From NCBI GenBank assembly GCA_030647775.1, contig JAUSJC010000010.1, positions 136,718 to 200,717 on the forward strand: a stretch of DNA of 64,000 bases, written 5' to 3'. A program made the translations under genes and the position numbers. The first letter of the stretch is position 1. Every line of letters starts with the position of its first letter. The notes below the pieces were generated by a model, which worked only from the letters and a program-made list of their open reading frames with translations, searched no databases and had not been told where the DNA came from. This document shows, in pieces, positions 2,775 to 39,811 of this stretch. Origin of the DNA: Candidatus Curtissbacteria bacterium (GTDB lineage: Bacteria > Patescibacteriota > Microgenomatia > Curtissbacterales > GWA2-41-24).

Positions 2775-3473
2775 ATGACATTGAAAATTATCTCTTGGAA
2801 TATTTGGGAAGGAAAATATTTTACAGGCATAATTGATTTTTTAAAGAAGTCAGATGCGGATATAATTGGTTTTCAGGAGGCCGTACAAGAAAAGGACGGA
2901 AAGGCAAATACGGCACAACTTATCGCAAATGAGCTGGGGTACGAATTTGTTTACGCAACAACTTGTGAAATAGAAAAAGACGGAAGAATTTTAGATAGAG
3001 GAAATGCAATTCTTAGCAAGCACAGGATCATCGAAAATAAAACGTATGTCTTATCTGAAATCGACAAACGCACAGCCATAGGAGCGGATATAGAGGTTAA
3101 AGGTACAAAGCTGCATGTTTTCAACACACATTTAATCCACACCCACCAAAAACCATCTGGTACACAAAACTTGCAAGCTAAAAATTTAATTGAAGTTTTG
3201 CCAAAGAGGGCAACCATCCTTATGGGGGATTTTAATGCTGTTCCTGGAAGTGTTGCCGTTAAGAAGATATCTAAGGTTCTTAAAAATACTGATACTTCTA
3301 ATCTTCCAACGTGGTGCGTATATCCCGAAGGCTGTAAAGTATGTAAACCAAAAGGTGTTGAATACAAACTGGATTATATTTTCGTCAGTCAAGACATTAA
3401 GTGTAAATTATTTGAGGTAGGAAGTTCGAAAGGATCAGACCATTTACCCATTTCAGCAATAATCCAGATATAG
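2775..3473 (+). CDS. Endonuclease/exonuclease/phosphatase (EEP) family protein
   Basis: 232 aa. EEP signatures are present: ISWNIW, GFQE, NTHL and GDFN, plus a C-terminal SDHLPI. Confidence 0.75.
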   Translation: MTLKIISWNIWEGKYFTGIIDFLKKSDADIIGFQEAVQEKDGKANTAQLIANELGYEFVYATTCEIEKDGRILDRGNAILSKHRIIENKTYVLSEIDKRTAIGADIEVKGTKLHVFNTHLIHTHQKPSGTQNLQAKNLIEVLPKRATILMGDFNAVPGSVAVKKISKVLKNTDTSNLPTWCVYPEGCKVCKPKGVEYKLDYIFVSQDIKCKLFEVGSSKGSDHLPISAIIQI

Positions 3474-3600: not shown

Positions 3601-3873
3601 ATGAATACTGTTCTTCCTTTAACCGAAGCGAGAAATAAATTTGCCGAACTCATTGATGATGCAAGCAAAATGTTTTCCCGCTTTACCATCACCAGAAACG
3701 GTAAACCGGAGGCAGTTCTCATGAGTAAGGACGAATATGATGCCCTGATCGATACTTTAGAAATTCTTTCCAACCCTGTCACTATGGCCTCTATCCGCCG
3801 CGGGGAAAAAGATATCAAAGCAGGCAGGGTCAAACCGCTTGAAGATGTCCTAAAAGATCTCAAGCTCTCCTAA
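3601..3873 (+). CDS. phd: Phd/YefM-family antitoxin
   Basis: MNTVLPLTEARNKFAELID...FTITRNGKPEAVLMSKDEYDALIDTLEIL is the canonical YefM fold sequence. The ORF track begins at 3547 but the conserved N-terminus starts at ATG 3601. Confidence 0.8.
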   Translation: MNTVLPLTEARNKFAELIDDASKMFSRFTITRNGKPEAVLMSKDEYDALIDTLEILSNPVTMASIRRGEKDIKAGRVKPLEDVLKDLKLS

Positions 3874-4124
3874 TGTATCAGGTTTTCCTCACCAATGAGG
3901 CCGAGAAACAATTAAAATCACTAGACAGTAGGTATCAAAAAGCACTTGCTCAAGCGCTCAAAAGACTTGCCGAAAATACCAAGGCCGGCGCACCACTGCG
4001 TCGGGAGCTTAAGGGTAAATACAAATTAAGGGTTTCAAGATACAGAATAATCTATGAATTTGATTATGGAAAAAAGATTATTTGGGTTTTGACAATCGAC
4101 CACAGAAAAGATGTTTATAGATAA
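3873..4124 (+). CDS. relE: RelE/ParE-family toxin
   Basis: 83 aa. The LKGKYKLRVSRYRIIYEFDYGKKIIWVLTIDHRKDVY motif is RelE/StbE-like. Its start overlaps the phd stop in TAATG. Confidence 0.8.
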   Translation: MYQVFLTNEAEKQLKSLDSRYQKALAQALKRLAENTKAGAPLRRELKGKYKLRVSRYRIIYEFDYGKKIIWVLTIDHRKDVYR

Positions 4125-7785: not shown

Positions 7786-10700
7786 ACGAATTGATTGACT
7801 TTGAGGCATTAAAATTAACTCTTGCCAGTCTCGATGACATCAAAACCTGGTCGTTCGGGGAAGTTACTAAACCGGAGACTATCAATTACCGAACTCTAAA
7901 GCCGGAAAAAGACGGTCTTTTTGACGAACGCATTTTTGGCCCGACCAAAGACTGGGAATGTTACTGCGGCAAGTATAAAAGGATCCGCTACCGCGGTATT
8001 ATTTGTGATAAATGTGGCGTTGAGGTAACCCAATCTCGGGTCCGCCGGGAAAGAATGGGTCATATCACCTTGGCCGCTCCGGTTGTTCACAACTGGTTTT
8101 TCAAAGGCAGTCCTTCAAAACTTGGTCTCCTGCTGGACATTTCTCCAAGAAGCCTGGATGCCGTTGTCTACTTTGCTTCTTACATGGTTATCACAGTCGA
8201 CCAAGATAAGAAAAAAGAAGTGATTAAGGCGCTCGAAGGGGAGCTTGATAGAAAAAGGAAAGAGCTTCAGGCAGACCTCAAAAAACAAATTGACCAAGAG
8301 GCTAAAGACACTAAAAAAGAAATCGACCGCATTAAATCAAAAGACGCCAAAGCCCGCGAGCAAGTCGATTTGAAAATCGAGGAGATGTCGCTCGCCTCCC
8401 GCCAGAGGCAGGCAAAACTCCGGGACGAAAATGTCCAGGAAGTTTCCCGGCTTGAGGAAATTTACAAAAATATTACCTCAATGGTCAATGCCATTAAGCC
8501 GCTTGATCTTCTTTCAGAAGACGAATACATGAAATTGGAAGATTATGATGCTTCCGGTTTTGCAAAAGTCGGCATGGGTGCTGAAGCCGTCCTTCAAGTT
8601 TTGGAAACGCTTGATCTTTCTAAACTGTCGGCTTCTTTGAGGGAAGAAATTTCCAGGATTACAGGCCAAAAACATATTAAAGCAACCAAAAAATTAAGGG
8701 TTGTTGAAGGTATGAGAAAAGCCGGGGTTATGCCCTCTGCCATGATCATAAAAATTCTTCCGGTTCTCCCGCCGGATCTTCGCCCTATGGTCCAGCTTTC
8801 CGGCGGCCGTTTTGCCACCTCCGACTTAAATGACCTTTACAGGCGCGTTATCAACAGGAACAATCGTCTTAAGAAGCTAATCGAACTTGGCGCCCCGGAA
8901 ATCATTCTCAGAAATGAAAAAAGGATGCTGCAGGAAGCCGTCGATGCTCTTATCGATTCCCAAAGGGTCAAATTAACCCGCGCGTCCAAGGAACTGCGTT
9001 CACTTTCCGATATGCTCCGCGGCAAACAAGGCCGCTTCCGCCAAAATCTTTTGGGCAAGCGCGTCGACTATTCCGGACGTTCTGTTATCGTTGTCGGTCC
9101 GGAACTTTCCCTAAATCAGGTTGGTATTCCTAAAGAAATGGCCTTGGAAATGTTCAAGCCGTTTGTTTTGCGTGAAGTCATAGGCCAGGGTCTTGCCCCC
9201 AACGTTAAAAGTGCCAAACATTTTATGGAAAGGCGAAGCGGAGAGGTTTGGGACATTCTGGAAGGCATCACCAAGAACCACCCGGTTCTTTTGAACCGTG
9301 CCCCTACATTGCACCGTCTTGGCATCCAAGCTTTCTTCCCGATTCTAATCGAAGGCAGCGCCATCAGGGTTCATCCTTGTGTCTGTGCCGGTTTCAATGC
9401 CGATTTTGATGGTGACCAGATGGCTGTACACGTTCCGCTTTCTAAAGCATCCCAAGAAGAAGCAATTGCGCTTATGATGTCGGCCAAAAACCTGCTTCGT
9501 CCGGCAGACGGGTCGCCAATCACACTGCCTAATAAAGAGATGGCTCTTGGAATTTATTATCTAACATCTATTGATCCCGCGGTGAGTGCAAACGAAAATA
9601 TTTTTGACGACGAGAGGCAAGTGGTTCTGGCCAAAGAACTCGGCAAAATTGCGGTTCGCCAAAAGATTAAGCTTAGACTCGGCAAAGATGTCCTTGAAAC
9701 TTCGGCCGGCCGGGTTCTATTCAATATGCAGCTACCGTTCCAAATGCGTTTTATAAACGAAACTGTTTCAGCCGCATACATTAAAAGAATCATCAACAGT
9801 GCCATTGACGGAATAGCCGAAGAAGAAGTAATCGAACTCATTGACAGGCTTAAAAACCTGGGTTTTGAAGGTGCCACGTTCTCCGGTCTTTCTGTCTCTG
9901 TTTTTGATTGTCTGATAGTTTCCGAGAAGCCGATTATCATTGCCCGGGCCGAAAAAGAAGTTGAGGGAATAGAGAAAAACTTCAAACTTGGTTTAATAAC
10001 CAAAGATGAGGAAAAACGTCTATCCCAGGAAGTCTGGCTGTCAGTCACCAACGAGATTGCCGATTTGACCTGGAGAAGTTTGCCATTCGACAACTCGATT
10101 AAAATTATTTCCGATTCCGGCGGTTCCCGCGCTACAGCCGAACAGGTCAAACAGCTTTCGGCAATCCGCGGTTTGGTAACCGATCCATCCGGACAAATTG
10201 TACCATTGCCGATTAAATCAAACTTCCGCGAGGGCCTTTCCGTTTTTGAATATTTCACCAGCGCCCGTGGTGCCAGAAAAGGCCTTGCCGATCGTGCCAT
10301 TAAAACTGCCGAATCTGGTTACTTAACCAGAAGGCTCGTCGACGTTGCTCACGATGCAATCGTTCGCATGGAAGATTGCGGGACCAAAGCCGGAATTACT
10401 ATTTCCAAAACCGACAAGCGCCAGGCGGCATTTGGCTTGCGTCTTGTCGGTCGGGTGGCCGCCGCCGATATTCTGTCTCCCAAAAACAAAAAAGCAATTG
10501 TTGCCGCGGGCAGCCAGATTTTGGAGTCCTCTCTTCCCGAAATTGATGCAGCCGGCATTACATCTGTGCAGGTTAGGTCTGTTCTGACATGTGAGGCAAA
10601 ATACGGCCTTTGCGCGCAGTGCTACGGCCGTGATTTAGTCACCCGCGAAATGGTAGCTCTCGGTACCCCCGTTGGCGTCATCGCCGCCCAGAGTATTGGT

Positions 10701-11548: not shown

Positions 11549-11562
11549 AATCTCAACCTTGT

Positions 11563-12060
11563 ATGCCAACAGTAAACCAATTAATTAGACACGGCCGACA
11601 TAATAAGATAAAACGTATTCACGCTACGGCGCTTCGTCGTGCTTTCAACTCCAAAGACAACCGCTACACATATTACCCGTCCGGTCAAAAGCGGGGAGTT
11701 TGCACCGTTGTCAAAACGATGACCCCCAGAAAACCCAATTCCGCTCTTCGTAAAGTTGCCCGTGTCAGGCTTTCCAATAAACAGGAAATTACTGCCTATA
11801 TTCCGGGTATTGGCCATGAACTGGCTGAACACTCAGTCGTTCTAGTTAGAGGAGGTAGGGTCAAAGACCTACCTGGTGTTAAATACCACATTATCCGCGG
11901 CAAATACGACGCTTCCGGAGTCAACAACAGAAAACAATCCAGATCGCTGTATGGAACCAAAAAATCCGGTGCCACAACCGGCAAGCAGGCTGCCGCTACA
12001 GTTGGCGCTAAAGCCGCCGCTCAGTCAGCTGCTCCCGAGGGAGGTACCGCAGGTGCCTAG
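11563..12060 (+). CDS. rpsL: 30S ribosomal protein S12, with an Ala-rich C-terminal extension
   Basis: [12 protein letters not shown]...PNSALRKV...[17 protein letters not shown], followed by a tail of about 30 aa reading [28 protein letters not shown]. Confidence 0.95.
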
Positions 12061-16779: not shown

Positions 16780-16833
16780 GTCATCCTGAACTTGATTCAG
16801 GATCTGTAGTTCTCGCTTCGCTCGAACAATAAG
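16780..16833. repeat. Dispersed hairpin-repeat element (modules A+C)
   Basis: gtcatcctgaa-cttga-ttcaggatc is a perfect 8-bp inverted repeat. It is followed by gtagttctcgcttcgctcgaacaataag. Related copies lie at 1729-1794, 18295-18322, 18410-18434 and 19832-19944. Confidence 0.7.
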
Positions 16834-16983
16834 CCCAATTAACAATCAACCATCAACAATGAACAATTACTTTTCCCACTTGCATTTGCAAGCATTTTTA
16901 ATTAAACTTATCAGACTTGAATCCGAATTCATCCTAATTATTAGTCCGAATTTATTCGAATTAATTTTGAGCCTGCGAAAAAT

Positions 16984-16995
16984 AAGCTCTCTTAT
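16984..16995 (+). promoter_or_regulatory. AAGCTCTCTTAT motif upstream of tuf
   Basis: aagctctcttat followed by taggagtaaaaattcggataaatt, a leader shared with rplC and rplP. Confidence 0.45.
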
Positions 16996-17028
16996 TAGGA
17001 GTAAAAATTCGGATAAATTTGTGTATAA

Positions 17029-18213: not shown

Positions 18214-18493
18214 GATCATAAGATCATTCGGTTTGCACAAGGGGCTATAGTCCTGAGTTGACCGAAGGATCTTTTTTTTGATACAATTGCCCGCGTATTG
18301 TTCGAGTGAGAGCGAGAACTATTTATATGATAACAAGAAGTAGAGACTTCAAGCCTAACCGCTTTTATAAATAACTTCTAGACTCCATTATTTCTCGAAC
18401 ACTCAACTGTCATCCTGAATTTGTTTCAGGATCTAGATTCCGAAATGAATTCGGAATGACCAAATTTTAAAGGTAGCACATTAAAAGAAAATT

Positions 18494-18930: not shown

Positions 18931-19037
18931 ATCCGAATTGATCCGAATTCTTAATCCGAATGGACACGAATTCGTAACAAATTTAAAATAGCGCGTTAGG
19001 ATAAATTAGGACTAAAAATTAGGATAAATTTGGAAAA
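18931..19037 (+). promoter_or_regulatory. Conserved ~105-nt leader upstream of rplC
   Basis: ccgaattgatccgaattcttaatccgaatggacacgaattcg...ggactaaaaattaggataaatttggaaaaATG. Near-identical in organisation to 23213-23318 upstream of rplP. Confidence 0.5.
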
Positions 19038-19787
19038 ATGGAGAACCAAATTAATACAATAATCGGCACCAAAGGCGCTATGTCTATGCGCTTTAATTCC
19101 CGTGGCCGGCAAATTCCGGTAACTTTTATAAATGCTGCGCCCAACCTAATTTTTGTTAATAAAAGCGGCCAATCCCAACTGACCTTCGGTCAAAAGAAAA
19201 AAGCAAAAAAAACAGAGAATGCTTATGTTAAATCTTTCGGATTTGCCCCCCGAAAAATTAAAGAAATTAAAAACCAACAGGAAATTAAAACCGGCGACAA
19301 GATAACAGTCGCCGTTTTTGCGCCGGGGGATGCAGTTAAGGTTACCGGTACTTCAAAAGGAAAAGGTTTCGCGGGTGGTATGAAAAGGTGGGGCTTCCAT
19401 GGAGGGCCAAAAACACACGGACAATCAGATAGGCACAGGTCTCCGGGTTCAATCGGCCAAACAACGACCCCGGGCCGCGTTTTCAAAGGCAAGAAAATGG
19501 CCGGTCATATGGGAAGCGAAACAAAATCCGTTAGAGGCCTGGAAGTTATAGAAATAGACGAGTCAAAAAATATTTTAGTCGTCAAAGGCGCAGTCCCCGG
19601 TGCCAAAAACGGTTTTCTCTTAATTGAAAAGATGGGCAAAGTTAAAACCTATGTTGCCCCTCCTCCACCACAAAAAGAAGATGAAGAGGAAGAAAAGAAA
19701 GCTGAAGTTGAAGAAGAAAAACAAGAAGAATCATCCTCCGCTGAAGCTACGGATGACAAGAAAGGAGATGAAAATGCCAGTAAGTAA
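19038..19787 (+). CDS. rplC: 50S ribosomal protein L3, with an acidic C-terminal extension
   Basis: L3 core (FAPGDAVKVTGTSKGKGFAG, KTHGQSDRHRSPGSIG) followed by about 45 aa that are E/K/D-rich. Confidence 0.93.
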   Translation: MENQINTIIGTKGAMSMRFNSRGRQIPVTFINAAPNLIFVNKSGQSQLTFGQKKKAKKTENAYVKSFGFAPRKIKEIKNQQEIKTGDKITVAVFAPGDAVKVTGTSKGKGFAGGMKRWGFHGGPKTHGQSDRHRSPGSIGQTTTPGRVFKGKKMAGHMGSETKSVRGLEVIEIDESKNILVVKGAVPGAKNGFLLIEKMGKVKTYVAPPPPQKEDEEEEKKAEVEEEKQEESSSAEATDDKKGDENASK

Positions 19788-19792
19788 AAGTA

Positions 19793-19864
19793 CAAAAGTT
19801 GACGGAAAAGGTAAAATCAAAACCTTTTCCAGTCATCCTGAACGAAGTGAAGGAACTATAAAAG
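19793..19864. repeat. 72-nt exact repeat, copy 1 (rplC-rplD spacer)
   Basis: caaaagttgacggaaaaggtaaaatcaaaaccttttccagtcatcctgaacgaagtgaaggaactataaag is identical to 22475-22546. Confidence 0.9.
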
Positions 19865-19983
19865 TGTCAAAAGATAGTTCTCGCTCTGCTCGAACAATAA
19901 CTCAAGATACGTCATTGCGAGGAGCGCAGGGACGAAGCAATCTCAAAACAGAGATCGCCACGACCCGGAAGACGGGCCTCGCG

Positions 19984-20625
19984 ATGACAAAAGGTCAGCC
20001 GGCAAAAACAGGCGGACTCACTGTCAGTGTTTTTGATCTTACCGGGAAAAGTGTTGCAACTATAGCTTTACCAAAAGAAATTTTTGGGCAAACCCCAAAC
20101 AAAAATCTTTTGCACCAGGCGATCCATATTTACCAAGCCAACGCGATTGCCAATACTGCCCATACAAAAACACGCGGCGAAATCCGCGGCGGCGGTACAA
20201 AACCTTGGAAGCAAAAAGGAACAGGACGGGCACGCGCCGGATCAATTCGTTCCCCTCTTTGGGTTGGTGGTGGAATAACTTTTGGTCCCAGGACCAGCAG
20301 TGTCAAATTATCCCTTCCGACAAAAATGAAGCACAGCGCACTTATTTCGGCTCTTTCTGCCAAACGTGAGTCCGGCGCAGTTAAAGTTATTAAAAATATT
20401 GAAAAGCTTGAGCCAAAAACCAGAATTGTCGCCAATCTTCTTTCTAAATTAGAAACAAAAGGGAAAACGCTACTAGTGATTTCCCAAAAAAACCGAAACA
20501 TAAAACTGGCAACCAGAAATATCAAAGAGATCAGCGTAAGTACTCCCCAAAACTTGAATGCCTATGAAATTCTAAAAAGCAGAAACTTACTACTTTCCGC
20601 TGAATCGATTAACAAATTTAAATGA
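19984..20625 (+). CDS. rplD: 50S ribosomal protein L4
   Basis: Conserved L4 sequence starts at MTKGQPAKTGGLTVSVFDLTGKSV (ATG 19984). The longer ORF from 19624 only translates repeat elements in the spacer. Confidence 0.9.
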   Translation: MTKGQPAKTGGLTVSVFDLTGKSVATIALPKEIFGQTPNKNLLHQAIHIYQANAIANTAHTKTRGEIRGGGTKPWKQKGTGRARAGSIRSPLWVGGGITFGPRTSSVKLSLPTKMKHSALISALSAKRESGAVKVIKNIEKLEPKTRIVANLLSKLETKGKTLLVISQKNRNIKLATRNIKEISVSTPQNLNAYEILKSRNLLLSAESINKFK

Positions 20626-20990
20626 AACACGGTGACATTTTACAAAAAGCAATACTTTCCGAAAAAGCATACCGGCTAATGGAAAAAGGTATTTACACAT
20701 TTTTTGTGTCCAAGTCAGCGTCAAAAAAAGATGTGAAGAATTCTATAGAAAAAATGTTCTCGGTAAGTGTCAAAAAAGTTAATGTGGCAGGAATTAGTTC
20801 AAAACAAAAGAAGATTGCCAAAACGAGGAAAACAGTAACAGTCGGCGGCGGCAAAAAAGCCATAGTCTATTTAAAAGCCGGCCAAACTATTTCCGTTCTT
20901 TCACCAAAAACCGAGTCAAAAACCAAGAAAACGAAAAAAACCGGCGAAAAAGATATCGAAAAGGTATCAGTAGAAGGGAAGGAAGGTTAA
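20622..20990 (+). CDS. rplW: 50S ribosomal protein L23
   Basis: 122 aa; its ATG overlaps the rplD stop (ATGA). L23-like N-terminus with a K-rich tail. Confidence 0.92.
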   Translation: MKHGDILQKAILSEKAYRLMEKGIYTFFVSKSASKKDVKNSIEKMFSVSVKKVNVAGISSKQKKIAKTRKTVTVGGGKKAIVYLKAGQTISVLSPKTESKTKKTKKTGEKDIEKVSVEGKEG

Positions 20991-20991
20991 A

Positions 20992-21816
20992 ATGCCAATT
21001 AAAGTCACAAGACCCATATCACCGTCTCAACGTTTCAAAAGCGGTTTGACCTTTGAGGAAATAACCAGAACAAGACCAGAAAGTTCTTTAACCAGCTCTC
21101 TTAATAGAACTTCCGGCAGGTCCGGTGGCAAAGTAACCACCCGAGGCAAAGGCGGCGGGCACAAAAGGAATCTTCGCCAGATTGATTTTAAAAGAAACAA
21201 AATAAACGTTGAGGCAAAAGTTGCTTCAATCGAATACGACCCAAATAGGACTGCCAATATTGCCCTTCTATATTACAAAGATGGCGAAAAAAGATATATT
21301 CTGGCCCCCATTGGTCTTAATGTCGGAGACAAAGTTATGTCAGGGGAAACCGCACCAATTGCCCCCGGCAATTCCTTACCGCTTGCCAAAATTCCGGTTG
21401 GGACTGTTGTTCATAATGTAGAGTTAATCCCCGGTTCCGGCGGTCAGATGGCCAGAAGTGCCGGTGTAGGGGCTATTGTTGCCGCCCGTGAAGGTAAATA
21501 CATCCATCTTAAGCTTCCTTCAAAAGAAGTAAGGCGCGTTCATAGTTCGGCAATTGCTACAATCGGCCAGGTCGGAAACGTTGATTGGAAAAACATAACT
21601 CTTGGCAAAGCCGGCAGATCCCGCCATATGGGAATAAAGCCGACGGTCCGTGGAGTAGCCCAGGATCCAAGATCCCACCCGCATGGCGGTGGAGAAGGAA
21701 AATCCGGTACCGGCATGAATCCAAAAACTCCATGGGGCAAACCGGCAATGGGCAAAAAGACAAGAAATAGAAATAAACCGTCCGGTAGATTCATTATGTC
21801 GAGGAGGAAGAAGTAA
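20992..21816 (+). CDS. rplB: 50S ribosomal protein L2
   Basis: 274 aa. [18 protein letters not shown] and [10 protein letters not shown] motifs. Confidence 0.95.
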
Positions 21817-22100
21817 TGGCCAGATCTAGTAAAAAGGGACCATACGTAGACGAAAAATTAATGAAAAAGGTAATGGCTCAGAAAGAATCCGGCAAAAAAG
21901 AGCCAATTAAAACTTGGGCAAGGGCAAGCCAAATCCCGCCGGAATTTGTCAGTCACACTTTTGCTGTCCACAATGGCCGGGCGCATATTAATGTTTTTGT
22001 TTCCGAACCAATGGTTGGCCACAGGCTCGGTGAATTTGCGCCAACTAGAGTCTTTAGAGGCCACGGAAAAATAACCGAAAAGGCCACAGCAAAGAAATAA
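21816..22100 (+). CDS. rpsS: 30S ribosomal protein S19
   Basis: 94 aa. SSKKGPYVD...[27 protein letters not shown]. Confidence 0.95.
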
Positions 22101-22591
22101 TGATTATTGAAGCGTCAGTTAAAAATATTCGAATATCAGCCGAAAAGGTTAAGCTTGTTGTGGACCAAATTAAAAAAATGCCGCCCCAAAAAGCTATTCA
22201 AATATTAAATTTTGTTAATAAATCATCTTCACCGGTTTTAAAAAAAGTTATTGCATCGGCACTTGCCAACGCTAAAAATAATCATGGTATCTCCGAAGGA
22301 GATTTAATTTTCAAGGAGATCTTAGTCGGTAATGGCCCGATGTTCAAAAGATTTCGGCCGGTATCCAGAGGAAGAGCACATCACATTTTAAAACGAACAA
22401 GCAATATCAAAATTGTATTGGAATCAAAAGCCGGGGAGACAAAAGTCTCAAAGGCGCCATCAACAAAAGAAGTATCAAAAGTTGACGGAAAAGGTAAAAT
22501 CAAAACCTTTTCCAGTCATCCTGAACGAAGTGAAGGAACTATAAAGCAAAACAAGAAAGAGAAAGGAGCTGTTAGTGGGGCAAAAAGTTAA
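22100..22591 (+). CDS. rplV: 50S ribosomal protein L22 with a repeat-derived C-terminal extension
   Basis: L22 core to ...RAHHILKRTSNIKIVLESK, then about 46 in-frame extra aa. Of these, 24 (VDGKGKIKTFSSHPERSEGTIK) are encoded by the 72-nt repeat. The stop overlaps rpsC by 17 nt. Confidence 0.88.
   Translation: MIIEASVKNIRISAEKVKLVVDQIKKMPPQKAIQILNFVNKSSSPVLKKVIASALANAKNNHGISEGDLIFKEILVGNGPMFKRFRPVSRGRAHHILKRTSNIKIVLESKAGETKVSKAPSTKEVSKVDGKGKIKTFSSHPERSEGTIKQNKKEKGAVSGAKS
22475..22546. repeat. 72-nt exact repeat, copy 2 (inside the rplV 3' end)
   Basis: Identical to 19793-19864. Confidence 0.9.
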
Positions 22592-23213
22592 CCCGATAGG
22601 TTTTAGGCTTGGAACTGTTTATACCTGGAATTCCAGGTGGTTTGCCAAAAAAGGGAATTTTGCAACCCTTCTCTTAGAAGATTACAAAATCCGTAAGTTT
22701 TTGATGGAAAACTTGAAAGCCGCGGGTATCACACGTGTAGAGATCGAAAGGTCTTTCGACAAAAGAACCATTATTGTCCATGTTGCCCGCCCCGGTGTTG
22801 CCATTGGCCGCGGTGGAACAGGCATTGAGCAAATAAAATCAACTCTAATCAAAAAGTTTAAAATCACCGATCCGGGCAAATTGGAAATAAGATTTGAGGA
22901 AGTTAAAGCACCGGACTTGGATGCTTATTTGGTTGCTATAAATATTGCAGACCAACTCGCCCGCCGCATTCCTTTTAGAAGAGTTATGAATCAATCCTTA
23001 GAAAGAGTCAAAAGATCCGGAGCGAAAGGGGTCCGAATCTCCTTGGGCGGCAGGCTTGGAGGTTCTGAGATAGCCAGGCGTGAAACTCTTAAAGATGGGT
23101 CAATTCCTCTGCATACTATTCGCGCGCAAATTGATTTTGCAAAAATTGACGCCAAAGTTCCAAGAGCAGGGATAGTCGGAATAAAAGTTTGGATCTTTAA
23201 AGGTGAATCATGA
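22575..23213 (+). CDS. rpsC: 30S ribosomal protein S3
   Basis: GTG start. MGQKVNPIGFRLG N-terminus; KH and S3-C regions. Confidence 0.93.
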   Translation: MGQKVNPIGFRLGTVYTWNSRWFAKKGNFATLLLEDYKIRKFLMENLKAAGITRVEIERSFDKRTIIVHVARPGVAIGRGGTGIEQIKSTLIKKFKITDPGKLEIRFEEVKAPDLDAYLVAINIADQLARRIPFRRVMNQSLERVKRSGAKGVRISLGGRLGGSEIARRETLKDGSIPLHTIRAQIDFAKIDAKVPRAGIVGIKVWIFKGES

Positions 23214-23318
23214 AACACGAATTGATCCGAATTCTTACTCCGAATGGACCCGAACACGTTTCGGGAATTAAAATATCGCTTTCGGATAAATTCGGACTAA
23301 AAATAAGGATAAATTAGG
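23213..23318 (+). promoter_or_regulatory. Conserved ~105-nt leader upstream of rplP
   Basis: acgaattgatccgaattcttactccgaatggacccgaacacg...ggactaaaaataaggataaattaggATG is a paralogue of 18931-19037. Confidence 0.5.
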
Positions 23319-23723
23319 ATGTTACAACCAAAAAGAGCAAAACATAGAAAACAATTTAGAGGTAAAATGAGAGGCCTTGCCATTCGCGGCAGTACCTTGT
23401 CCTTTGGCTCATTTGGCCTCAAAAGCCAAGAAGCTGGATGGATTTCGGCCCGCCAAATAGAAGCCGCTCGTCGGGCAATGACCCATTACACCAAAAGAGG
23501 CGGCCGTATCTGGATTAGAATTTTTCCCGATAAGCCGATAACCAAAAAACCTGCAGAAACCAGAATGGGTTCCGGCAAAGGTGAAGTTGACCAGTTCGTT
23601 GCAGTCGTAAGACCAGGGACAATTCTTTTTGAGATGGGAGCAGTTGAAGAAAAAGTTGCCCACGCGGCGATTAGGTTAGCAGCAAACAAACTGCCTATAA
23701 AAACAAAAATAATAACCAGATAA
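23319..23723 (+). CDS. rplP: 50S ribosomal protein L16
   Basis: 134 aa. [19 protein letters not shown]... Confidence 0.95.
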
Positions 23724-33540: not shown

Positions 33541-33995
33541 GACATCAGGTTTTCGGAAGAAAGCTCAACCGCGATATAAATTCGCGAAGGGCTCTAGCTT
33601 CCAACCTTGCTAGTTCTCTGCTAGTTGAGGGTCATATTATAACGACTTTGGCAAAGGCAAAATTCGTAAAGGTTTTTGCCGAAAAGTTAATTACTGATGC
33701 TAAAAGAACGAGCCTTCATACAAGAAGGTCTATTGCTTCGCGGCTCACGCACAAAGCATTTATCAGATTAATCACCGAAATTAGTCCAGGATTTGCAGGT
33801 CGCGAAGGGGGGTATACCAGGATTATTAAGTTGTCTACACGTCTTGGGGATTCTGCGCCAATGGCCAGAATCGAAATTTTAGAGTGGGATAAATCGAAAA
33901 GCATCACACTGACAAAAACGGCTAAACCGGCCAAGAAAGCCGCATCAAAGATCAAGCCCGCGCCAAAGAAGATAACAAAAATCGTAAAAAGATGA
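33537..33995 (+). CDS. rplQ: 50S ribosomal protein L17
   Basis: GTG start. RHQVFGRKLNRDINSRRAL... Confidence 0.93.
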   Translation: MRHQVFGRKLNRDINSRRALASNLASSLLVEGHIITTLAKAKFVKVFAEKLITDAKRTSLHTRRSIASRLTHKAFIRLITEISPGFAGREGGYTRIIKLSTRLGDSAPMARIEILEWDKSKSITLTKTAKPAKKAASKIKPAPKKITKIVKR

Positions 33996-35587: not shown

Positions 35588-35613
35588 TCCTAATTTAACC
35601 TCAAAGACAGATG

Positions 35614-35684
35614 TCGGGGAGGGGAGAATCGAACTCCCGATACTGCACCCCCAGCGCAGTGTGTTACCACTATACTACTCCCCG
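35614..35684 (-). tRNA. tRNA-Pro (anticodon GGG)
   Basis: The reverse complement folds as a cloverleaf: CGGGGAG acceptor stem pairing with CTCCCCG, D-loop AGTGGTA, anticodon stem CTGCG/TGCAG with loop CTGGGGG, and T-arm GGGAG-TTCGATT-CTCCC. No CCA is encoded. Confidence 0.75.
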
Positions 35685-39678: not shown

Positions 39679-39811
39679 GTCCCGAATTTACCCCAATTAT
39701 TTTTCCGAATAAATCCTAATTATACTTTGACAAAGACAGTTTTTAAGTTATAATTATGGATACCAATTTGGATAAATTCGGATAAAAAATTCGGATCAAT
39801 TAGGGTTATCA

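Follow-up and report, generated by a model that had tools for sequence, protein, structure and literature searches.

How does one stretch of DNA come to lie, letter for letter, in two different ribosomal-protein genes? The question is raised by a window of 64,000 nucleotides, the whole stretch analyzed here, which covers the ribosomal-protein region (str/S10/spc/alpha) in the metagenome-assembled genome (MAG) of a Candidatus Curtissbacteria bacterium, an uncultured, groundwater-type member of the Microgenomates within the candidate phyla radiation (CPR). An exact direct repeat of 70 nt (19793-19862 = 22476-22545, spacing 2683) occurs there near the start of rplD, encoding L4, and again near the end of rplV, encoding L22. 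For the source genome, our analysis covers this window (64 kb of at least 527 kb). The explanation that we consider probable is that the repeat represents a mobile, translatable palindromic cassette of ~63-66 nt, analogous to the Rickettsia palindromic elements (RPEs), which is tolerated in disordered ribosomal-protein tails and is selfish or neutral rather than adaptive.

A hairpin cassette in L4 and L22

A 70-nt exact match cannot have arisen by chance within 64 kb. The repeat had been described as 72 nt long, at 19793-19864 and 22475-22546; its exactness is borne out, whereas its length and limits were off by 1-2 nt. Leftward, the similarity extends over 3 nt more if a 1-nt indel is allowed (GTA-CAAAAG versus GTATCAAAAG). 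The first 6-7 nt of the repeat (CAAAAG[T]) are ancestral host sequence and fall outside the cassette, which comprises 21 codons and encodes the peptide VDGKGKIKTFSSHPERSEGTI. Taken alone, the cassette folds as two adjacent hairpins (-19.9 kcal/mol, z = -4.0), so that the proposal of a repeat carrying the 5' half of a hairpin module had to be given up. A larger hairpin as the unit was rejected on the same ground and because the copies in L22 and in L17 of another genome, described below, share an end point. We also rejected a role of hairpin 1 as a terminator, since it lacks a subsequent T-run and is located within open reading frames (ORFs).

The cassette has a single stop-free forward frame; one of the other two holds five stops, and the other ends in TAA. 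In all copies known to us the reading is (K)VDGKGKIKTFSSHPE(R/Q)SEG(T/S), a basic, hydrophilic peptide like the tail that surrounds it. Two of the four substitutions that separate the copies are nonsynonymous; the stem of hairpin 1 shows no variation, and the differences are located in its loop and in hairpin 2'. The small hairpin also contains a dispersed core, GTCATCCTGAAC, which starts at 19832 in copy 1. As the original prediction had stated, this core recurs between genes, exactly at 16780 and with a single mismatch at 1729 and at 18409, and at each of these three sites it forms a simpler CCTGAAC-TTG-xTTCAGG hairpin. We assign the cassette to the dispersed palindromes of GTCATCCTGA type that characterize this CPR lineage. 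At 1728-1830 (intergenic, upstream of ORF 1813-2721) we observed a small hairpin, GTCACCCTGAAC-TCG-TTTCAGGAT, followed by an GTCATTGCGAGCGTAGCGCGGCAATCTCG arm.

The window L22 is 100% identical to NCBI MDO8487283.1 (P0001), contains the Pfam domain PF00237, and is encoded between rpsS and rpsC in the S10 operon, which identifies it as uL22. It was correctly noted before that the repeat is in frame in rplV, that 15 codons follow it before the TAA at 22589-22591, and that this stop overlaps rpsC, with its GTG at 22575, by 17 nt. The accompanying estimate of ~46 residues gained is not supported, since the cassette accounts for 21 residues and the net increase over the nearest relative is 14.

We compared L22 with 120 homologues from the same lineage, of which 93 allowed the tail to be delimited. 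The Lys-rich tail after the ..KIVLE core has a median length of 30 amino acids (range 15-56), and that of the window is the longest, with 56 amino acids after ..VL. Among the 120 homologues, the window L22 is the only one with the cassette. Its nearest relatives, P0002 (149 amino acids, 90% identical) and P0003 (139 amino acids, 83%), are both free of the repeat, and the tails of repeat-free relatives measure 26-42 amino acids. In the closest relatives, L22 ends in ..KGxKxG(A/T)KS at an identical stop, which likewise overlaps rpsC by 17 nt, and the AAAGGAG Shine-Dalgarno (SD) sequence of rpsC lies, as in the window, inside the tail. Because the tail, the stop, and the overlap all occur in relatives without the repeat, we conclude that the L22 extension is ancestral; the alignment of rplV 3' ends that had been proposed as a check speaks for an extension independent of the repeat. 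By these comparisons the cassette lies inside a pre-existing tail that it did not create.

Alignment of the filled L22 site with the empty sites in the DNA of L001, L090, and L003 places the cassette after GTATCAAAAG. On its left the insert adjoins GAAGTATCAAAAG (..EVSK), an ancestral L22 sequence, and on its 3' side ~22 nt of the old tail are missing. The idea of a mobile-looking element that landed on the L22 stop codon consequently survives in part: a mobile-looking hairpin repeat is present in frame, whereas the stop is the one also used by repeat-free relatives. In the AlphaFold model of L22, the core has a predicted local distance difference test score above 90, and residues 114-163 score below 50 and show no secondary structure. 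On sequence grounds, the cassette in L22 is very likely translated.

Two side observations concern the rplV/rpsC junction. In L089 (about 3030-3081) the two genes do not overlap and are separated by a 50-nt spacer with about 4-5 copies of a tandem CACTATT repeat. Furthermore, rpsC (7792-8430) is split into two ORFs in L086 and intact in L087, which is the same sequence type from another assembly, probably reflecting an assembly or sequencing frameshift.

The other copy had been assigned to a spacer between rplC and rplD. The region is, however, open in the L4 frame, is preceded by a conserved SD sequence and ATG, and belongs to the annotated L4 coding sequence (NCBI MDO8487279.1, 290 amino acids, start at ATG 19753, repeat included). 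From the conserved ATG at 19774 the protein reads MPVSKSTKV.. This ATG overlaps the rplC stop by 14 nt in L001, L003, L086, L089, and L090 also, and the sequence GGAG-N-ATGCC at the L4 start is invariant in the alignment despite the variable L3 tail around it. Between ATG 19774 and the L4 core, the L4 frame alone is open, the other frames having 4 and 7 stops. The inserts between start and core differ in length among the window, L001, L003, L086, L089, and L090, and all are in frame. L001 must use the upstream start, as there is no alternative start codon near the core.

Long N-terminal extensions are common in this group. Among 120 Curtissbacteria-type L4 homologues (P0121-P0240), 114 have at least 225 amino acids, compared with about 205 for a plain L4, and their extensions contain 30% Lys + Arg and 4% Asp + Glu. 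Homologues at 91% identity carry PF00573, and rplD lies between rplC and rplW, in keeping with uL4. Searching the genome collection with the L4 core yielded a single Curtissbacteria locus, L054, as the query was swamped by the universal WKQKGTGR motif. We interpret the N-terminal extension as part of the L4 ORF and predict that it is translated. Since the supposed spacer is the L4 extension, both repeat copies reside in annotated coding sequences and share one reading frame.

Other dispersed palindromes are also read in frame in L4. The arm TAGTTCTCG..CGAACAATAA, part of the L4 frame, is found again at 16807-16832 and, inverted, at 18299-18321, and the GTCATTGCGAGG...CCTCGCGATGAC element is in frame in the relatives P0124, P0121, and P0139 as well. 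In-frame translations of other dispersed palindromic repeats were identified in 16 of the 120 extensions, within the N-terminal 30-110 residues, giving peptides such as SLRG..RRSNL..IATTRKTGLAMTK, SSSERKRVEKS..SSSRQARTV, VIPAKAGIQ, and SLRAKRSNL (L054 offers an example at 3857-4000). The GTCATTGCGAG-type repeat always uses the SLR frame there (SLR..SNL). These data support the view that such tails tolerate palindromic repeats. At its end, the GTCATTGCGAGG..CGCGATGAC palindrome has an ATGAC that provides an in-frame ATG (19984-19986) just before the L4 core (MTKGQPAKTGGLTV), as it does in P0121 and P0124, and the palindrome could have donated an alternative L4 start codon.

Copies in other genomes and their possible movement

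In total we found four copies of the cassette in three genomes, two at the L4 N-terminus and one each at the C-termini of L22 and L17. All share one frame and the peptide KVDGKGKIKTFSSHPE(R/Q)SEG, and a profile search over all retrieved sequences revealed none beyond these four. Genome A, that of the window, has the cassette in L4 and L22 and lacks it in L17. Genome B (L003/L092/L094) has it in L17 and lacks it in L4 and L22, and genome C (L086-L088) has it in L4 and lacks it in L22. In L001, L090, and L089 none was found, with both L4 and L22 empty.

The copy of genome C lies at the equivalent place in the L4 extension of a different species (P0127, KVDGKGKIKTFSSHPERSEGT). Operon DNA of L086-L088 is about 74-76% identical to the window, whereas the two L4 cassettes agree at 64 of 65 nt against ~74% in their flanks (binomial P about 1e-7). 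When a 21-mer that spans both hairpins was scanned against 241 million metagenome records, two hits were returned, the L086-type L4 and L092. In L092 the cassette occupies the extreme end of rplQ, which encodes L17, in the same frame (..KPVRKKVDGKGKIKTFSSHPEQSEGSKK*), with the stop overlapping the rplM ATG; 65 of 69 positions are identical to the window, and the flanks are 82% identical. This L17 (L092/L094) is encoded on the same 163-kb contig as L003 and is recovered in independent assemblies from ENA, NCBI, JGI, and Logan. Empty L17 sites are present in L093, a close relative, and in the window. L001 and L090 are closer to genome A than genome C is, yet they are cassette-free in L4 and L22. 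Across genomes the cassette is 94-98% identical, and the genes that flank it are 74-88% identical. Its scattered occurrence, the variety of its host genes, and this near-identity within diverged flanks fit gain by mobility better than vertical inheritance.

The junctions are uniform. All four copies begin, with their hairpin, directly at the left junction AAAG/TTGACGG, end in GGA(A/T)CTA, are co-oriented with transcription, and lie within ~50 nt of a stop/start junction (rplC/rplD, rplV/rpsC, or rplQ/rplM). Comparison of filled and empty sites in L22, L17, and L4 disclosed no target-site duplication and no terminal inverted repeats (TTGACGG... / ...GGAACTA), and at the filled L22 and L17 sites part of the old tail sequence has been replaced. 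The A-rich 3' tails of rplQ are read in differing frames among close relatives (window 33860-33995, KIKPAPKKITKIVKR; L093 3310-3446, KKPHHQKSNLRQRK; L092 4366-4480 on the minus strand, GAASPQIKPVRKK..). As A-rich DNA encodes a Lys-rich sequence in any frame, the L17 tail appears to tolerate frameshifts.

These observations suggest a sequence of events. The L22 copy would have been placed very recently and without substitution into the pre-existing C-terminal tail; its youth follows from the zero divergence between the two window copies. L4 is the probable donor, because the L4 copy also occurs in genome C. The left junction falls on the CAAAAG microhomology that is present in both L4 and L22, and ~22 nt of the old tail were replaced. 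Neither the frame nor the ancestral stop was altered, and rplV and rpsC still overlap by 17 nt. Spread could proceed by copy-and-paste at microhomology of the AAAG type, through gene conversion or template switching, or else by a route that depends on the hairpin and resembles transposition through single-stranded DNA. Persistence may depend on disordered ribosomal-protein tails tolerating stop-free frames only if they are basic or hydrophilic. The fixed frame of the cassette is explained by the stops in its other forward frames, which would be intolerable in the L4 extension.

A bolder proposal, to which we give little credence, is that the cassette is a mobile element specialized for the disordered Lys-rich tails at ribosomal-protein operon junctions. 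Insertion at AAAG would then be hairpin-guided and duplication-free, as with single-stranded DNA (Y1 transposase-like) mechanisms, or the cassette would pass between co-occurring Curtissbacteria by transformation and microhomology recombination; the hairpins or the 21-residue peptide would affect operon expression or the ribosome surface, and much of the ribosomal-protein extension in CPR bacteria would be built from translated palindromic repeats.

Table 1. Positions in the window of the repeat copies, their substructures, and the host and neighboring genes
Feature	Coordinates	Strand	Remarks
Repeat copy 1	19793..19862	+	70 nt exact, within L4 N-terminal extension
Cassette proper, copy 1	about 19799-19858	+	encodes (K)VDGKGKIKTFSSHPERSEGTI
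Hairpin 1, copy 1	19800..19835	+	TGACGGAAAAGGT / 9-nt loop / ACCTTTTCC-A-GTCA
Small hairpin 2', copy 1	19836..19854	+	UCCUGAAC-GAA-GUGAAGGA (UCCU GAAC GAA GUGA AGGA)
Repeat copy 2	22476..22545	+	70 nt exact, within L22 tail, reading frame as copy 1
Hairpin 1, copy 2	22483-22518	+	TGACGGAAAAGGT / 9-nt loop / ACCTTTTCC-A-GTCA
Small hairpin 2', copy 2	22519-22537	+	UCCUGAAC-GAA-GUGAAGGA
rplV (L22), 163 aa	22100..22591	+	core residues 1 to about 110; Lys-rich tail about 22430-22588
rpsC (S3)	22575..23213	+	GTG start 17 nt before rplV stop; SD AAGGAG about 22561-22567 inside L22 tail
rplC (L3), acidic C-terminal tail	19038..19787	+	last 14 nt overlap conserved L4 start
rplD (L4), from conserved start MPVSK..	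19774..20625	+	N-terminal extension 19774 to about 20001; core begins ..TGGLTVSVFD
TAGTTCTCGCTCTGCTCGAACAATAA arm (TAGTTCTCG..CGAACAATAA)	19875..19900	+	L4 copy only; separate dispersed repeat, can pair with cassette end
GTCATTGCGAGG...CCTCGCGATGAC palindromic element	19911..19988	+	-37.7 kcal/mol; in-frame reading SLRGAQGRSNLKTEIATTRKTGLAMT

Other low-complexity tails and repeats of the region were recorded as well. Relatives have an L3 of 246-257 amino acids with a similar acidic tail, which is found in all of them, even in L054, a distant Curtissbacteria, and is free of repeats. This L3 tail is ancestral low-complexity sequence, and the suggestion that it shares its origin with the L22 extension was not upheld. 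S12 (window 11551-12060) has an Ala/Gly-rich C-terminal tail, to which no repeat family maps. A second repeat family of ~100 nt, each unit consisting of three direct ATCCGAAT(T) motifs, a 20-30-nt center, and three complementary ATT(C/A)GGAT motifs, is located at 16921-17024, 18933-19035, 23214-23320, and 39680-39807 of the window and at 5892-6006 of L001. The units terminate precisely where the start codon of tuf, rplC, or rplP lies. The best match in L001 (92%) lies at rpsS/rplV, another junction, indicating that this family also moves between operon junctions.

Competing explanations

Several points weigh against a mobile, translated cassette. Translation of the cassette is a prediction from sequence, and the in-frame ATG at 19984, inside the downstream palindrome, could be the L4 start instead. 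The AAAG target and the fixed frame derive from four copies in three genomes, and AAAG is common in Lys-rich sequence. The direction of copying from L4 to L22 leans solely on the L4 copy shared with another species. No transposase or RAYT (REP-associated tyrosine transposase) gene was identified in the 64-kb window. Finally, the very high nucleotide identity could reflect constraint on RNA or DNA structure.

This last point leads to the alternative that fares best, although we still rate it as unlikely: a functional cis-acting element, in which a two-hairpin module is kept at ribosomal-protein junctions for mRNA stability, processing, translational coupling, or protein binding and its translation is incidental. 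Such a role is favored by the identity of the cassettes (94-100%, compared with 74-88% for the genes on either side), by the invariance of the hairpin-1 stem, by significant folding, and by the closeness of all four copies to a stop/start junction. The same invariance of the stem means that there is no covariation, and a search of the window with the Rfam covariance models at their gathering threshold returned tRNA-Pro as the sole match and assigned the repeat to no RNA family. (This tRNA-Pro(GGG), at 35613-35684, is 100% identical to that of genome B at L092 2017-2088, in surroundings where the genes are about 82% identical.) Moreover, the module is dispensable, since most close relatives lack it at the same junctions, and it is patchy and moves between different genes; an RNA role would also need no fixed reading frame.

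An adaptive peptide module, in which the 21 residues would owe their spread among ribosomal-protein tails to selection for a role at the ribosome surface, is in our judgment quite improbable. It would accommodate the common frame and peptide in three different host proteins, as well as the basic, hydrophilic character that the peptide shares with ribosomal-protein extensions. When 1.84 billion representative proteins were searched exhaustively with a profile, however, no protein family with the cassette peptide was found, only one generic CHPERSEGS repeat translation and low-complexity repeat proteins. A word-indexed protein search with the duplicated peptide gave no match either, which is an effect of the index, as P0001 and P0127 both contain the peptide. 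In addition, the tail is predicted to be disordered, half of the substitutions are nonsynonymous, and the stops in the other two forward frames suffice to explain the fixed frame. A dedicated function of the peptide is thus unlikely.

We give even less weight to an assembly artifact, in which the L22 copy would have been created during metagenome assembly, as a chimera or through repeat collapse. An artifact would suit the origin of the sequence from a MAG, the 100% identity of two copies only 2.7 kb apart, and the status of the cassette-bearing L22 as a singleton in a collection of 15 billion proteins. Nevertheless, both copies have correct collinear flanks, and a misjoin at a 70-nt repeat would swap flanks rather than add a copy. 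The insertion is a multiple of 3 that preserves frame, stop, and overlap, and the analogous insertion in the L17 tail was obtained in four independently assembled data sets.

The weakest account, insertion onto the L22 stop with read-through into a new tail of ~46 residues overlapping rpsC and a second copy in a non-coding rplC-rplD spacer, draws on the in-frame repeat near the rplV 3' end and the longest tail of the 93 but is close to untenable, being already refuted by the alignments with L001, L003, L086, and L090, in which repeat-free tails have the same end (..KGxKxGxKS), stop, and overlap, by the rpsC SD sequence and start embedded in the conserved tail, and by the open, conserved, NCBI-annotated L4 extension that takes the place of the spacer.

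Relation to known repeats and significance

The closest parallel to a mobile, translated cassette is provided by the RPEs. As summarized in PMC10969869 (citing Ogata et al. 2000, 2002), RPEs are hairpin repeats that lie in frame in unrelated and even essential genes and are viewed as selfish DNA; each family has one conserved frame and peptide, and insertions are tolerated where the host fold permits. They measure about 100-150 bp and reach, in Alphaproteobacteria, tens of copies per genome. Like the RPEs, our cassette forms hairpins, is multicopy, and lies in frame in unrelated genes with a conserved peptide. Unlike them, it measures 63-66 nt, has a CPR host from a different phylum, and is known from four copies, each of which occupies a disordered tail at one end of a ribosomal protein. 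The resemblance is accordingly one of mechanism and not of family: the length falls below the 100-150 bp of RPEs, and the likeness is drawn by description, a relationship in sequence not being expected.

Repetitive extragenic palindromes (REPs) are extragenic by definition, reach hundreds of copies, and are associated with a RAYT gene. With REPs, the bacterial interspersed mosaic elements (BIMEs) associated with RAYT genes, and elements derived from the IS200/IS605 insertion sequences, the cassette has in common short imperfect palindromes near gene junctions and no target-site duplication. It further recalls IS200/IS605-type elements in its position 3' of a fixed AAAG (4 of 4), the hairpin beside the left junction, and the single orientation, a tentative likeness given that the copies number four, that AAAG is frequent in Lys codons, and that no Y1 transposase (TnpA) is known for these genomes. 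The cassette copies of the window and its relatives are not extragenic like REPs; they are intragenic, within ORFs, and predicted to be translated, and in this they also differ from the related GTCATCCTGA cores at 1729, 16780, and 18409, which are intergenic.

[quoted passage not shown] These ERIC, BOX, and MITE elements have terminal inverted repeats and usually target duplications, and the cassette has neither. Its classification as a MITE was rejected, because its ends are not inverted repeats, no target duplication is seen, and old sequence was partly replaced. Viral contigs yielded no match, and the literature searches returned nothing beyond unrelated primers for the repeat core sequences and nothing relevant on palindromic repeats in CPR bacteria.

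Extensions of ribosomal proteins have been described in CPR bacteria, with uL22 among those that are larger there, along with the caution that N-terminal extensions depend on the start codon called (Tsurumaki et al. 2022; PMC9297842). The Lys-rich L22 tail and the L4 N-terminal extension found here are of this kind. In contrast to that study, in which repeat-derived segments go unreported, part of the extension can here be traced to a dispersed hairpin repeat that is common to different ribosomal proteins.

Together, these data describe a small palindromic cassette, predicted to be translated, that a few Curtissbacteria have in their uL4, uL22, and bL17 tails and that is probably a variant of the RPE-type phenomenon. 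In-frame repeat DNA is unexpected in ribosomal proteins, whose genes are among the most conserved and form the backbone of CPR phylogenies. If our interpretation is correct, it would show specifically where some of the ribosomal-protein extensions peculiar to CPR bacteria, so far unexplained, come from and would extend the phenomenon of selfish DNA in coding genes from Rickettsia to a very different lineage with reduced genomes. It would also bear on L4 start-codon calls and on MAG quality checks that flag abnormal ribosomal-protein lengths, and the tryptic peptide TFSSHPER would serve as a natural marker of translation in metaproteomes. Finally, it would caution that segments within ribosomal-protein tails can move laterally, with consequences for trees built from concatenated ribosomal proteins.

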